Origin: a virus
Lineage: Duplodnaviria > Heunggongvirae > Uroviricota > Caudoviricetes
DNA: 35,394 nucleotides
Direction: 5' to 3' (one strand)
Virus record (IMG/VR): IMGVR_UViG_2711768013_000020
Shown piece by piece: positions 9,450-35,394 of the stretch. A program made the translations under genes and the position numbers. How positions within the stretch are numbered: position 1 is the first letter of the stretch; each line of letters starts with the position of its first letter. A model generated the notes under the pieces. That model was not told where the DNA came from. It was given only the letters and a program-made list of their open reading frames with translations, and made no database searches.

Positions 9450-9839
9450 TCAGGACTTTTCCGGCGTCAGCCCCTCATGCTCCAAATCCCCGGCATTATC
9501 AATGGCCCCCATACCGCTCAGCGACAGAACCATCTCCGCCCCCGCACCCAGGGCATCATACGACCATGTTGTAATAACGGATGCGTAAAGCGTCTCAACA
9601 TCCTGAGACTGTTCCGCATTCCACAGTGAGCGGGAAACCAGCCAGGCATTGATATCCATCCCCATCCGCAGAAAAGCAATCTGTCGTTCAGCCTCCGGCA
9701 GTTCTCCCTCCCCGGCATCAAACTTTGCCGTTCGCTGCTGAACAAACGTCAGATATTCAATTCTCTGCAGCCCGGACAGCTCACTGAGCACCACGGACTG
9801 TTTTTCATAATTAAACGTGTCCTGTTTCAGAAACATCAT
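9450..9839 (-). CDS. G: Tail assembly chaperone G
   Basis: Start MMFLKQDTFNYEKQSVVLSELSGLQRIEYL preceded by GGTGGAG; lambda G-like; position between V and T. Confidence 0.8.
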   Translation of the reverse strand: MMFLKQDTFNYEKQSVVLSELSGLQRIEYLTFVQQRTAKFDAGEGELPEAERQIAFLRMGMDINAWLVSRSLWNAEQSQDVETLYASVITTWSYDALGAGAEMVLSLSGMGAIDNAGDLEHEGLTPEKS

Positions 9840-28531: not shown

Positions 28532-29360
28532 GACGATGCCCTCCGCTGATATTCAGGAGACGGTGAATATGAAAATTAGCCTTATCCGCCAGACGAATAC
28601 GTTCAGCTTGCAAGTTAAGAAGGGTTTCTACCAGAACCTGATGTGCCTGCGGATCCGAAAGAGTTACCTTGCGCAGAGCACGTAGTGCAGTTGTTACATA
28701 ACTGAGTTTATGTAAGTCTTCATCATTCAGACGAGTGAGGGCTGGGACAGTAGCCATGATGGCAGCCTCCTTGATCGGTGAAATACTTCCACCACCGGAA
28801 ACGCCAATTTCGCTGGTGGTGAACTGAACGGGGTTGGCGTAACCGGTGATCAAGGAAACCGGCGCATCTTTCGATGCCCCCGCCCAGCCCACCATAACTT
28901 TGATGTGAGCAAATGCGGACGATAAAAAAGACGCTGGCGCGTCATATATCGCCTTGATCAATTCCAGGACGCCAATCCCGGCACCCGCTTTATAAGGTGC
29001 CTGAACAGTGTAACGTCCCGGAATGGCAGAATCAATGTGCTGGTGGTCCTTCACACTCAACAAAATCACGCCTGAATTTCCACAAAGGACTAAAGCACTC
29101 ATGCGGGTAGTCTTTGCGAAGATAGATAACGCGCTGTGTTTCTGGCTCCCAACGAATAACATGAACATAAAGTCCTCTTCCGTCACGAAACCAGCGGTTA
29201 AGTTCCTGCACAACTCGCCCCCCACAGTCAGGTAAAGTTCTCTGTGGTTACTTACAGCCAGGTGATTTGGTAATCTGCATTCATGCCGTAACAACAGGTG
29301 TTCAGCGACGCTGACCACCAGCTGTTGCGACAAACGGTTATTTGCCGTTAAACTGTTCAT
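28524..29360 (-). CDS. Hypothetical protein (278 aa) between the cII analogue and the replication initiator
   Basis: ATG 29360 with RBS GGAGAAA, ATGA overlap with the upstream stop; Gly-rich segment SEIGVSGGGSISPIKEAA; no family recognised. Confidence 0.6.
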   Translation of the reverse strand: MNSLTANNRLSQQLVVSVAEHLLLRHECRLPNHLAVSNHRELYLTVGGELCRNLTAGFVTEEDFMFMLFVGSQKHSALSIFAKTTRMSALVLCGNSGVILLSVKDHQHIDSAIPGRYTVQAPYKAGAGIGVLELIKAIYDAPASFLSSAFAHIKVMVGWAGASKDAPVSLITGYANPVQFTTSEIGVSGGGSISPIKEAAIMATVPALTRLNDEDLHKLSYVTTALRALRKVTLSDPQAHQVLVETLLNLQAERIRLADKANFHIHRLLNISGGHRHA

Positions 29361-32890: not shown

Positions 32891-33032
32891 ACGGAAGCGA
32901 TAATTTTAACTATTGCCGCCCCTATAAAGAACCATTAAACAATAACGTGACGTAGCTATTGATAGTAAATGAAGCACTTGCAAAATAATTGCATTGCGTA
33001 TATATACACACATGTGTTGTATTACAGCGATA

Positions 33033-33827
33033 ATGGTAAAGCAAATGATTAACTCTGAAGCAATTGAGCAACTAATGTGGCTATGGTCCTTATTTGACAT
33101 TAAATTCTTATCTATTCTTGCCGCTGCCTTCACTATATATTTTGGCGTGCAAAAAATATCAAAAAAGGTGACAGTGTCGTATTCAGCAAATGCAAGTAGA
33201 ATATATGACATGCATATATCAACCATAATCCTGAATAATAAAAGAGATAATGCAATTGCTATATCTTCAATCAATATGGAGGTTGAAGGTAAAGGGATAC
33301 TACAAGTTATTAAATTTGACTCCCCTCTTCTTTTAAAGAACTATGATTCTTTAAAAGTTGAACCACCAAAATTTAGCAGCCTTTACAATAATGATGGCGT
33401 AGTTAAGTTAGATATTTCTGATAAGTTTCATTTTTATATAATCACGACATCTGGAGATGAAATTAAATGTATTTCTGAAAATAAATATGTAGCACCAAAC
33501 ATGGAAAACAAAATAGCTACAGACATAAGAAAATTTAATGGCATTGTCTTAACAAACAGAATGTCTTATATTTTTTTCTATGCAAATGACAACGGAGAGA
33601 AATACTGCATAATAGATGTTTCATTGTTCATAAATGGTGACAACCCATTTCATTTTAATTTTTTAAAAGAAGATGAATTAAGAGATTTTTCTAGCATCCT
33701 TATTAGTTACGGATATCACCAACAGTTTAAAAGTTATGCATTGTTTAAAATAGACAACCATCTTGCTCCTTCTTTGGTTTTAAATAAATCAATGATAGAA
33801 AATAATATTATTGAAATGAATAAGTAA
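33033..33827 (+). CDS. AT-rich membrane-anchored protein of unknown function (start ambiguous: 33012, 33033 or 33045)
   Basis: Predicted N-terminal transmembrane helix LMWLWSLFDIKFLSILAAAFTIYFGV then a roughly 230-aa domain; GC content far below the flanking prophage genes; no SD. Confidence 0.55.
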   Translation: MVKQMINSEAIEQLMWLWSLFDIKFLSILAAAFTIYFGVQKISKKVTVSYSANASRIYDMHISTIILNNKRDNAIAISSINMEVEGKGILQVIKFDSPLLLKNYDSLKVEPPKFSSLYNNDGVVKLDISDKFHFYIITTSGDEIKCISENKYVAPNMENKIATDIRKFNGIVLTNRMSYIFFYANDNGEKYCIIDVSLFINGDNPFHFNFLKEDELRDFSSILISYGYHQQFKSYALFKIDNHLAPSLVLNKSMIENNIIEMNK

Positions 33828-33863: not shown

Positions 33864-34145
33864 ATGAATACCTTGTTTTTACTGATGGCTGAATTCAATA
33901 CCCCAAACATTGAACTCTCAGCAGTTAGTCAAAAATACTTTGGTATGAGTCCAGCCACAGCAGAAGCAAAAGCAAACGCTTGTAAGTTGCCTGTACCTAC
34001 ATATCGCATCGGTACATCACAAAAAGCAAAACGTTGCATCAATATTCAGGATCTTGCGGAATACATAGACAAAAGACGAGAAGAAGGACGTATCGAGTGG
34101 GAACAGGTCAGAACAGGCAAACAGAAGGGCAAAGAACATCACTAA
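33864..34145 (+). CDS. PrtN-family (pyocin-activator-like) small DNA-binding protein
   Basis: 93 aa, RBS GGAGAAA, MNTLFLLMAEFNTPNIELSAVSQKYFGMSPATAEAKANACKLPVPTYRIGTSQKAKRCI. Confidence 0.65.
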   Translation: MNTLFLLMAEFNTPNIELSAVSQKYFGMSPATAEAKANACKLPVPTYRIGTSQKAKRCINIQDLAEYIDKRREEGRIEWEQVRTGKQKGKEHH

Positions 34146-34174
34146 AGAAAAAACCCGCCTAAAGGCGGGTTTTC
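34144..34174. terminator. Convergent terminator shared by the plus-strand early-left genes and the minus-strand Panacea operon
   Basis: AAAAACCCGCC-taaa-GGCGGGTTTT: 7-bp GC stem with A/T runs on both sides. Confidence 0.65.
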
Positions 34175-34192: not shown

Positions 34193-34366
34193 TCATGCTG
34201 CTTTGCGACGACGAAGCTTACCCTGCTGCTCTTTACCAGAGACAGTAGCGTGAGTGAACGCATTAGGAGCAGCCTTCATCAGAACTTCAACAGCAGCACC
34301 CATACCTGCGAATGCTTTCATTGTGTCGAACTTAACCTGTGGCTTGGTTGCTTTTTGATCTTCCAT
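34193..34366 (-). CDS. Hypothetical small basic protein (57 aa), last gene of the Panacea operon
   Basis: ATG 34366 with GGAG 8 nt upstream; MEDQKATKPQVKFDTMKAFAGMGAAVEVLMKAAPNAFTHATVSGKEQQGKLRRRKAA; not in the ORF track (under 60 aa). Confidence 0.35.
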   Translation of the reverse strand: MEDQKATKPQVKFDTMKAFAGMGAAVEVLMKAAPNAFTHATVSGKEQQGKLRRRKAA

Positions 34367-34405
34367 AGAAAACTCCAGAAGCTATACCGAAACAATTCCT
34401 GTTGT

Positions 34406-34825
34406 TTACTCATCATCAATAGATGATACGCAATATTTATTTTTAAATTTAAGGTTCTTTGGCGTAACTTCATCAGATATATCAAAACCGTCCAGAATTC
34501 TATTGAATGTAGCTTCTGGCATATCATCATGAACGGAAATCTCACCCGATCGCTGCTTTCTAACCATGTTATCCACTCGCCAAATTATAGCTTCAGCGTA
34601 AACAACATAACTTGGATGCTTGATAAAGCGATGATCACCAGAATTCAAGACGCAAGACGGATCGTGGGGGACACCATCCTTGATACTAGAAATATTAACA
34701 ACTAAAACACAATAACAATCGTTAACGGGGTAATAAACAGGATCATTACAAATCACATGAAGATGATTGCATGGCCCAGTTGGGGCAAGCACAGTTCCTT
34801 TCCTGTATGGCTGATAATCCGTCAT
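34406..34825 (-). CDS. Hypothetical protein (139 aa), candidate toxin/effector partner of the Panacea-domain protein
   Basis: Start overlaps the upstream stop (ATGA); no recognised family. Confidence 0.6.
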   Translation of the reverse strand: MTDYQPYRKGTVLAPTGPCNHLHVICNDPVYYPVNDCYCVLVVNISSIKDGVPHDPSCVLNSGDHRFIKHPSYVVYAEAIIWRVDNMVRKQRSGEISVHDDMPEATFNRILDGFDISDEVTPKNLKFKNKYCVSSIDDE

Positions 34826-35394
34826 GATAATTGCAAAGAAAATTCCTTAAGTTTCTGAGATTCTTCCATTTTGCCAATTATACGATTAGCCTCATCCTCG
34901 CTTTTACCCTCACTGATCAGCATTTCTTTCAGGTCTATAGGCTTACGAGAATTGCCAGGATTGTGCCACTCTGGACAAACGCTTTCTAAATGCGTCATGT
35001 TTGCGAGATCAAATCGGTTCATATGCCCATACAGAGAATAGATTTCATCTAAAATCCGGATATCTGCACGGCTCAACTCATCAAAGACCTCGTCTGCATC
35101 CATTTCCCTCGGATCTGAACGCAACAACACATCATGCCCGTTCGTCTCTATCAGGTTGTACCAGTAGTCACCAATACCTTCAGCCTTACCACGAATCAAG
35201 TTCAGCGTATTCGACATGACTGGACCAAATTTCATAGAGTAAAGGCTATCTTCGCCGATCATCCTGCCATGCTTCAAAATCGACTTGCGGTTAGACAGAT
35301 AGAGCAGCTTCATCAATTTCAGATATGCCATGCGCCCACCTCGCTTAAGAAGTAGGTATGCAGCCATTTGAGCTACTTTTTCTTCGCAAAACAT
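34822..35394 (-). CDS. Panacea-domain (DUF4065, SocA/GepA-like) protein, candidate antitoxin; start coincides with the window edge
   Basis: MAAYLLLKRGGRMAYLKLMKLLYLSNRKSILKHGRMIGEDSLYSMKFGPVMSN matches the Panacea N-terminal signature (LKLqKLLYyaq ... GPV). Confidence 0.7.
   Translation of the reverse strand: MFCEEKVAQMAAYLLLKRGGRMAYLKLMKLLYLSNRKSILKHGRMIGEDSLYSMKFGPVMSNTLNLIRGKAEGIGDYWYNLIETNGHDVLLRSDPREMDADEVFDELSRADIRILDEIYSLYGHMNRFDLANMTHLESVCPEWHNPGNSRKPIDLKEMLISEGKSEDEANRIIGKMEESQKLKEFSLQLS

Follow-up and report, generated by a model that had tools for sequence, protein, structure and literature searches.

The genes panA and panT, which close the window (the whole stretch of DNA that was analysed, 35,394 nucleotides long), probably constitute a type II PanAT toxin-antitoxin cassette with a MazF-fold toxin, and the 57-aa gene that follows them is, on the same reading, not a component of it. 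The PanA-PanT pair is a further member of the PanAT toxin family described in 2022 and not a new toxin. The panAT cassette, ~1.2 kb of low-GC DNA at one end of an E. coli prophage, fills a variable slot bordered by xis and by the dusA attachment site. The features concerned are as follows.

34822..35394, minus strand: panA, 190 aa, Pfam PF13274 match, RefSeq WP_000458583.1
34822..34825, minus strand: ATGA stop/start overlap of panA and panT, read directly from the sequence
34406..34825, minus strand: panT, 139 aa, predicted MazF/Kid/CcdB fold, toxin cluster T6 (Kurata et al. 2022)
34376..34380, strand not applicable: left junction of the cargo cassette, where homology to other-cargo prophages stops
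34193..34366, minus strand: basic ORF of 57 aa, phrog_2741 (no annotated function)
34149..34174, minus strand: intrinsic terminator, 11-pair stem (6 G-C pairs), loop of 4, T run
33864..34145, plus strand: xis, PrtN-family excisionase gene (Pfam PF11112, E 3.1e-23; phrog_1300 'excisionase')

The three minus-strand ORFs of 190, 139 and 57 aa reported by the first-pass annotation are present in the sequence, as are the 4-nt ATGA overlap of the panA stop with the panT start (...TTATCATGACGG...) and the GGAG ribosome-binding site of the 57-aa ORF, found 6 nt before its ATG; the latter ORF is indeed basic, with 11 Lys/Arg versus 5 Asp/Glu. The overlap points to translational coupling of panA and panT. 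A Shine-Dalgarno sequence is absent from the 15 nt preceding the panT ATG, and the -4 overlap is shared by 14 of 25 related loci. The terminator that had been placed at the operon end reads GAAAACCCGCC-TTTA-GGCGGGTTTTT followed by a T run (window 34149-34174; locus L001 8350-8375 minus, offset +25799), and sits between the 57-aa ORF and xis, which converge. The operon had been described as pointing away from the early-left genes, but actually converges with the early-left operon, the last gene of which is xis, and the terminator is common to both. The GC content of the operon, 42.2% (38.6% for panT), lies below the 52.0% of window positions 1-32000, as had been proposed, and together with the position at the prophage end it bears out the earlier description of a low-GC cargo. 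The final window position coincides exactly with the panA ATG, so the operon promoter lies outside the window. A promoter-like site, TTGACC-17-TAAACT, is found just beyond this edge and is a weak match to the consensus (9/12). The 300 nt upstream of panA are devoid of inverted or direct repeats of at least 8 nt, and no operator is therefore identified.

The assignment of the 190-aa product to the Panacea family passes an HMM search: PF13274 (SocA_Panacea) reports a hit of 67.9 bits (cut-off 25.7; E 1.8e-18) covering residues 27-137 and profile positions 1-109 of 113, and RefSeq labels WP_000458583.1 a 'Panacea domain-containing protein'. PanA is a standalone Panacea protein, devoid of any N-terminal HTH or PAD1 domain, with a ~50-aa tail after the domain. 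It does not pass the SocA equivalog model NF047745 of NCBIfam (13.5 bits for a cut-off of 190).

The 139-aa PanT does not return any match in Pfam, NCBIfam, PADLOC or the PDB sequences, its sole match being phrog_19071, for which no function is annotated. A PDB profile search found nothing, and weak matches to ICMT, DapC and an IgG hybrid were set aside as noise. Grouped at 50% identity, the PanT family falls into at least 2,718 clusters; none of 76 sampled members (0/76) matches a Pfam toxin model, and hhalign comparison of the 76-member alignment with a small set of five MazF/Kid/ChpBK sequences gives a probability of 0.4%. RefSeq starts PanT at a GTG codon (128 aa), a start that was rejected because the 11 residues upstream of it, which include the invariant G10 of strand 1, are conserved in homologues. 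His21 and Asp55 are invariant (76/76), while Cys58, His65 and a Ser/Thr at position 47 are each found in 75/76 sequences, and all family-invariant residues are intact in the E. coli prophage copy. A structural zinc site made up of H21, H23 and C26 was also considered and was dropped, since H23 and C26 vary across the wider family.

The predicted structure of PanT is confident (pLDDT 89.9) and is that of a MazF/Kid/CcdB SH3-like barrel, MazF and Kid outscoring CcdB in each of the fold searches with this model. PanT thus belongs by predicted structure with the CcdB/MazF SH3-like barrels and, despite the shared fold, is not matched by the PF02452 family profile. The first-pass annotation had recognised no toxin family in the 139-aa partner and had suggested that it may be a new toxin or abortive-infection effector, a view that gives way before this fold and the membership of cluster T6. 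It had also counted placement in a well-described family by a profile search as evidence against its reading: sequence profiles fail to provide such a placement, whereas structure and cross-reference to the literature do place PanT in a described family, that of a toxin.

The toxin cluster T6 has a validated representative from Pseudomonas moraviensis (PanA WP_083354365.1 / PanT WP_083201923.1) in the work of Kurata et al. 2022 (PNAS 119:e2102212119, PMC8832971). In E. coli this PanT proved toxic, an effect relieved by its own PanA; it specifically blocks the incorporation of 35S-methionine and not that of thymidine, and is MazF/PemK/EndoA-like by HHpred. Sequence comparison with the members given in the accessible part of Dataset S1 places the present PanT in T6 by homology: it shares 57% identity (query coverage 93%) with WP_101821906.1, which appears there under T6 for 'Yersiniaceae bacterium 2016Iso4', and 56% with its counterpart in Pantoea septica LMG 5345 (locus L012), also listed there under T6. 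The measured intergenic distances of -1 and -4 agree with the T6 table of Kurata et al. in its accessible part, and the accessible part of the supplement does not contain WP_000458583, WP_014640052 or WP_000390072. A profile search with a diverse PanT alignment returned no Pseudomonas member by name among its best 120 hits; what connects it with P. moraviensis is therefore the shared membership of T6, together with the N-terminus of the PanA of Pseudomonas phage Sirocco (46% identical to the present PanA), MIFSEQKVAQ, which is the decapeptide restored on the P. moraviensis PanA by Kurata et al. The ORF downstream of the Sirocco PanA is 48% identical to PanT and represents the nearest proxy for the P. 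moraviensis toxin. A literature search did not find any biochemical follow-up on T6 toxins.

The same fold could also be that of a CcdB-like gyrase poison, in which case PanT would trap gyrase and block replication instead of acting as a ribonuclease. This is very improbable, given the ranking of MazF and Kid above CcdB in every fold search and the specific inhibition of protein synthesis, and not of thymidine incorporation, by the tested T6 homologue (PMC8832971). Furthermore, the invariant His/Asp/Cys/His/Ser set suggests that PanT has enzymatic activity instead of acting purely by binding.

As to the chemistry of a MazF-fold PanT, the catalytic residues of E. coli MazF are R29, where strand 2 begins, and T52, where strand 3 ends. 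Judged by strand order only, His21 of PanT stands at the R29-equivalent place and Ser/Thr47 at the T52-equivalent one, and the canonical catalytic Arg and Thr are not obvious in PanT. Its His/Asp/Cys/His set could correspond to a different chemistry from that of MazF: the Arg/Thr pair may be replaced in T6 PanT by His21, Asp55, Cys58 and His65 together with Ser/Thr47, carried on a long ordered loop, and this set could form a zinc site or a Cys-His-Asp-type centre. If PanT does possess such a centre, it would display an activity or a target so far unseen in the CcdB/MazF fold. On this reading, to which as a whole we give a small chance, T6 PanT would be devoid of MazF-type RNase chemistry on its CcdB/MazF scaffold, and the xis-dusA slot of these E. 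coli prophages may also serve specifically for the exchange of abortive-infection modules led by Panacea genes, which would protect the lysogen from other phages.

The toxin-antitoxin layout and the suggestion that the pair travels together are both sustained by synteny across Gamma-, Beta- and Alphaproteobacteria, with 28 further pair loci in Enterobacterales, Vibrio, Shewanella, Methylococcales, Burkholderiales, Sphingomonadales and others. A homologous panA is located directly upstream, ending -4 to +62 nt from panT, in 28/28 related loci with enough upstream DNA, and the panA homologues preceding each panT homologue examined encode 184-191 aa. In the FlaGs criteria applied by Kurata et al., a partner gene has to lie within 100 nt and the two-gene arrangement has to recur in two or more species; panA and panT overlap by -4 and keep their arrangement in these 28 loci. 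The divergence of PanA and that of PanT are correlated (r = 0.89), as expected of a co-inherited pair. In E. coli, panAT is present in 193 of 5426 complete genomes (~3.6%) and in two isolated phages, at 97-100% identity.

This conservation bears on whether the E. coli pair is a working toxin-antitoxin system at all, since the 139-aa protein might be non-toxic and fulfil another prophage function, such as regulation or sensing, within a relic layout. Eight of the 25 candidate toxins of Kurata et al., among them that of an E. coli Panacea pair of cluster T1, were non-toxic in E. coli (PMC8832971), and Ernits et al. 2023 proposed Panacea to be mainly a sensor domain, both of which lend this reading some weight. 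We nevertheless judge it unlikely: both genes are full length and tightly coupled in a conserved manner, every family-invariant residue is kept in the E. coli copy, near-identical copies persist in the 193 genomes and two phages, and a toxin of the same cluster is toxic in E. coli itself (PMC8832971).

The first-pass annotation considered the three genes a single operon, with the 57-aa gene as part of the module. This ORF starts 39 nt downstream of panT and, given this short gap, its own GGAG and the absence of an intervening terminator, it is probably carried on the panAT transcript. The same arrangement would suit a system of three components that needs the 57-aa basic protein as regulator, chaperone or co-toxin, and third genes do occur occasionally in the PanAT loci of Kurata et al. 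(PMC8832971). Such a system is nonetheless hardly credible: the 57-aa gene is missing from all 28 non-E. coli PanAT loci, being restricted among the related loci examined to E. coli loci and phages; it occurs in 550 E. coli genomes as compared with 193 for panAT; it stays beside xis under different, unrelated cargo and without panAT in mEp460 and O157:H7; the cassette junction separates it from panT; and its GC content (48.3%) is near that of the backbone. The 57-aa gene is best described as a phage backbone neighbour of xis, probably co-transcribed here, and not as a member of the panAT cassette. A single-sequence model of its product exhibits a short helical core, with low confidence (pLDDT 68).

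The left junction of the cassette is located between the 57-aa gene and panT, 10-13 nt upstream of the 57-aa ATG, where megablast coverage breaks at query positions 513-516 in agreement with pairwise blastn; the mEp460 match stops at window 34379. The right junction falls beyond the edge of the window, 194 nt before the start codon of panA (L001 9789). At least three alternative cargoes, two of which are unrelated PanAT systems, share the xis-dusA slot, which in other strains contains either a different, validated PanAT pair or a 177-aa gene without known function. For the EC130 allele, partner-swapping within one PanA lineage was considered and rejected: its PanA and the present one are only 20% identical, which implies that the whole module was replaced. 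No paper on the dusA-prophage slot was found in the literature. PADLOC-DB 2.0 contains no model matching any of the three proteins or the alternative cargo genes of the slot, and a defence role of panAT is for this reason conjecture.

If panAT is a toxin-antitoxin cassette as proposed, its transcription would run inward from the prophage end, driven either by the cassette's own TTGACC-17-TAAACT site or, in the lysogen, by read-through from the dusA host promoter, and would stop at the terminator common with xis. The two genes would be translationally coupled at the ATGA, with the 57-aa gene simply a co-transcribed backbone neighbour. PanT would stop growth via inhibition of translation, most probably as a sequence-specific endoribonuclease, and PanA would bind and neutralise it, by analogy with homologous pairs, the only ones for which complexing and neutralisation have been demonstrated (PMC8832971). 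The cassette would likely contribute to abortive-infection defence of the lysogen, to prophage stabilisation, or to both.

A probable function is hereby assigned to a gene pair of ~3.6% of complete E. coli genomes, in which PanT is labelled 'hypothetical', often with a wrong start codon. As the T6-type PanT family lacks any Pfam, NCBIfam or PADLOC model, it is missed by annotation pipelines and defence-system finders. The xis-dusA slot represents a convenient natural system in which to test Panacea modules in phage defence. Current understanding is not overturned, the PanT family and its mode of action having been reported earlier (Kurata et al. 2022).

Several known systems resemble the present one in part. 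SocAB, the Caulobacter type VI toxin-antitoxin system and founding Panacea/DUF4065 member, has in its antitoxin the Pfam domain of PanA, but the toxin partner of the present PanA is not SocB-like; the PanAT pairs tested in the literature are reported to act via direct binding and not as ClpXP adaptors (PMC8832971). MazF, PemK (Kid) and EndoA (PF02452) share no detectable sequence similarity with PanT, and in the PanT model the long S1-S2 loop of the MazF type is reduced to a tight turn, while a well-ordered loop (residues 48-71) and a second C-terminal helix are added. The conserved set of PanT is His21, Ser/Thr47, Asp55, Cys58 and His65, as compared with the Arg29/Thr52 pair of MazF, and its antitoxin is a Panacea protein instead of a MazE or AbrB/RHH protein. 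The T6 PanAT systems are alike in several respects: a standalone Panacea antitoxin precedes the toxin, with which it overlaps by -4 or -1, the toxin of ~130-140 aa is MazF/PemK-like solely by structure or HHpred, and the N-terminal part of the present PanA shows homology to the MIFSEQKVAQ lineage; the E. coli pair differs in riding a dusA-integrating phage and in the extra small ORF after panT. Lastly, the PanAT of E. coli STEC O31 (PanA WP_000287252.1), likewise a Panacea-led two-gene cassette, is found in other E. coli strains (L037) in the identical slot, from the PrtN-type xis to the dusA attachment site. Its PanA is just 20% identical to the present one and its toxin, a predicted membrane protein of cluster T3 that depolarises the membrane (Kurata et al. 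2022, Table 1, PMC8832971), is unrelated to the present PanT; in this allele the 57-aa gene and the terminator are replaced as well.

At the end of the prophage, three minus-strand ORFs lead to an intrinsic terminator, which the excisionase gene xis reaches from the opposite side:

34822-35394, minus strand, panA, the 190-aa Panacea antitoxin PanA (ORF call)
34406-34825, minus strand, panT, the 139-aa partner toxin PanT (ORF call)
34193-34366, minus strand, 57-aa ORF (ORF call)
34149-34174, minus strand, intrinsic terminator (11-pair stem with 6 G-C pairs, 4-nt loop, T run; position obtained from locus L001 by adding 25799)
33864-34145, plus strand, xis, PrtN-family excisionase, convergent with the panAT operon

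Direct reading of the sequence indicates that the panA stop and the panT start have an ATGA in common and that the panT ATG has no Shine-Dalgarno sequence nearby, which fits translational coupling of the two genes. The 57-aa ORF starts 39 nt beyond panT and possesses its own GGAG, 6 nt 5' of its ATG. The GC content is 43.1% for panA, 38.6% for panT and 48.3% for the 57-aa ORF, as compared with 52.0% for window positions 1-32000. The computed coordinates and GC values agree with the three minus-strand ORFs, ATGA overlap, GGAG, terminator and low GC described in the first-pass annotation. The window ends exactly at the panA ATG, and the promoter is therefore located outside it.

The Panacea assignment of the 190-aa protein holds in an HMM search, PanA passing the Pfam SocA_Panacea model (67.9 bits, cut-off 25.7, E 1.8e-18, residues 27-137), and RefSeq already names this product 'Panacea domain-containing protein'. 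PanA was also considered as a SocA equivalog and rejected, since it reaches 13.5 of the 190 bits that the NCBIfam model requires. No domain other than Panacea was found in PanA, the Panacea domain being followed by a tail of ~50 residues. The neutralising contacts may reside in this tail or in the conserved TH..PEW.DP.GSS.PI segment; such contacts have a precedent in another PanA (Ernits et al. 2023).

Synteny establishes that panA and panT travel together, a point that the initial reading had left to be checked: in all 28 related loci whose upstream DNA extends far enough, a homologous panA is found directly upstream of panT. They are drawn from Enterobacterales, Vibrio, Shewanella, Methylococcales, Sutterella, Burkholderiales, Sphingomonadales and Rhodobacterales. 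The gap between the two genes ranges from -4 to +62 nt, with the -4 overlap in 14 of 25 loci, and the pairwise identities of PanA and PanT are correlated (Pearson r = 0.89, 300 pairs), as should be expected of a co-inherited interacting pair. The carriers vary: among them are a P4-like island that has AlpA, a P2-like prophage and phages of the lambdoid and Mu-tailed types. By tblastn, the toxin is present in nine records of temperate phages, whose hosts represent six genera. Of the loci that look degenerate, one in a Bathymodiolus symbiont (L032 3044-3330) has its panT homologue broken into two fragments, and another (L029 2560-2923) has a short panA homologue (117 aa) 62 nt from panT.

PanT does not return any Pfam, NCBIfam or PADLOC match, nor any PDB sequence or profile match, its sole match being phrog_19071, of unknown function. 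A first homology search returned 62 relatives, every one named 'hypothetical', and a family profile built from 38 of them matches 2,718 cluster representatives with an E-value of 0.001 or less, 936 of them at 1e-10 or less; Pfam toxin models match 0 of 76 sampled family members. The first 11 PanT residues (MTxYxPYRKGT) are kept in the alignment, G10 being invariant, which makes the ATG start (139 aa) the correct one. RefSeq begins the gene at an internal GTG (128 aa) at window 34792 and not at the ATG at 34825, and so loses part of strand 1. The family is poorly annotated, with homologues deposited at many different lengths; Pseudomonas phage Sirocco carries no annotation for its toxin ORF (L038 1486-1884) and shows a 44-aa antisense ORF there instead. 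In a Proteus cluster (P0017), an identical PanT appears under three GenBank accessions of the same prefix (AYY81064, AYY81154, AYY82117), suggesting a Proteus genome with several copies of the PanAT module.

The AlphaFold model of PanT, built from the family alignment, is confident (pLDDT 89.9, pTM 0.83), and three fold searches with it are in agreement. Foldseek against the PDB reports MazF for all of the top 50 matches (best E 3.7e-3, probability 1.00), and 'PemK-like protein' or 'endoribonuclease' leads the matches in the viral BFVD. Profile-profile comparison with five MazF-family sequences gave a probability of 0.4% and no sequence similarity, and the relationship between PanT and MazF is thus at the fold level only. 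His21 is invariant and Ser/Thr47 is present in 75 of 76 sequences; an ordered loop after position 47 bears an invariant Asp55 as well as Cys58 and His65 (each in 75 of 76). Judged by strand order, His21 would occupy the place of MazF Arg29 and Ser/Thr47 that of Thr52.

Kurata et al. 2022 (PMC8832971) catalogued Panacea partners as numbered toxin clusters, and cluster T6 includes, among others, Proteus vulgaris FDAARGOS_556, Pluralibacter gergoviae, 'Yersiniaceae bacterium 2016Iso4' (toxin WP_101821906.1, distance -1), Pantoea septica LMG 5345 (distance -4) and Pseudomonas moraviensis (toxin WP_083201923.1). One of the PanT homologues, P0298, proves to be WP_101821906.1 itself; it shares 57% identity with the window PanT, over 93% of its length. 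The related loci L012 and L011 are Pantoea septica LMG 5345 and strain 2016-Iso4, and the panA-panT distances measured here, -4 and -1, equal the values in that table. Kurata et al. also state that ten residues, MIFSEQKVAQ, were put back on the N-terminus of the P. moraviensis PanA. The Sirocco PanA, 46% identical to that of the window, starts with this exact segment, and the product of the ORF that follows it shares 48% identity with the window PanT. The P. moraviensis PanT is described there as toxic in E. coli and rescued by its own PanA, as similar to EndoA/PemK/MazF by HHpred, and as specifically inhibiting 35S-methionine incorporation (PMC8832971). The T6 homology together with this validated member places the 'unclassified partner' in a described toxin cluster, and the window PanT is, by homology, a member of a cluster with a validated representative. 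The MazF-like fold and the T6 membership via WP_101821906.1 thus argue against a new toxin. The E. coli copy is absent from the portion of the Kurata et al. data examined, and no test of it was found.

E. coli A14 (100% identical) and phage SKA5 have the genes between xis and the attachment site, which is a 5' fragment of dusA; beyond that site, the phage form has its integrase gene. By pairwise blastn, the cassette's right edge falls at 9789 of locus L001, 194 nt upstream of the panA ATG, so that the cassette covers ~1.2 kb with its own upstream region, which contains a promoter-like site (TTGACC, 17 nt, TAAACT; L001 9750-9722). In the lysogen, the displaced host dusA 5' fragment (L001 9849-9953, minus strand) is on the strand of panA, 253 nt upstream of it, and no terminator is predicted in the interval, making read-through possible, and the host dusA promoter could drive the cassette. 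In E. coli EC130, this slot (L037 3804-4848) encodes the Panacea protein WP_000287252.1 with a partner of 182 aa; in Table 1 of PMC8832971 the former is the antitoxin of a validated pair, the E. coli STEC O31 PanAT, whose toxin acts on the membrane. The STEC O31/EC130 and window PanA proteins share only 20% identity, and their toxins are not related to each other, indicating that whole modules are exchanged there. The slot of O157:H7 (L035 4200-4733) and of mEp460 (gp23, L033 3731-4264) encodes a 177-aa protein without Pfam or PADLOC match, and no slot gene matches PADLOC models.

The first-pass annotation had proposed a three-gene unit, but the 57-aa gene is outside the panAT module. Its product has no homologue at any non-E. 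coli locus and, among phages, is found only in SKA5, Lys8385Vzw and mEp460. In mEp460 and O157:H7 the gene adjoins xis with other cargo, the 177-aa hypothetical gene preceding it at the place of panAT, and, among 5,426 complete E. coli genomes, 550 have the segment that it forms with xis and 193 the segment that also takes in panAT. The junction at which allele homology breaks, window 34376-34379, is just 5' of its ribosome-binding site and separates it from panT. Its GC content is near the backbone value, and its single-sequence model exhibits a short helical core only (pLDDT 68). Of the original proposal, the Panacea-led toxin-antitoxin cargo stands; the new toxin and the three-gene unit do not.

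Between a yfdQ-like gene and xis, an ORF of 260-277 aa (window 32994-33827, plus strand; GC 29.3%) matches phrog_14996, of unknown function (E 2.9e-178), without any Pfam or PADLOC match, and looks like a second foreign cargo piece in the early-left operon. Rfam reports two adjacent RNAs, both exceeding their gathering scores:

28812-28899, minus strand, C4 antisense RNA (82.3 bits)
28924-29000, minus strand, isrK Hfq-binding sRNA (64.2 bits)

Here the prophage may have a region that controls an antirepressor in the P1/P7 style.

Domain identity, fold, coupling, conserved pairing and cluster membership are observed here for panAT; toxicity, PanA neutralisation and translation-specific inhibition are known for homologues from PMC8832971. 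PanT would act as an endoribonuclease, and the pair may plausibly serve to defend by abortive infection or to stabilise the prophage. The useful results are the corrected panT start codon, a large PanT family without a profile model, a prophage slot alternating between unrelated PanAT modules, and the conserved His/Asp/Cys/His set by which the PanT family differs from MazF.
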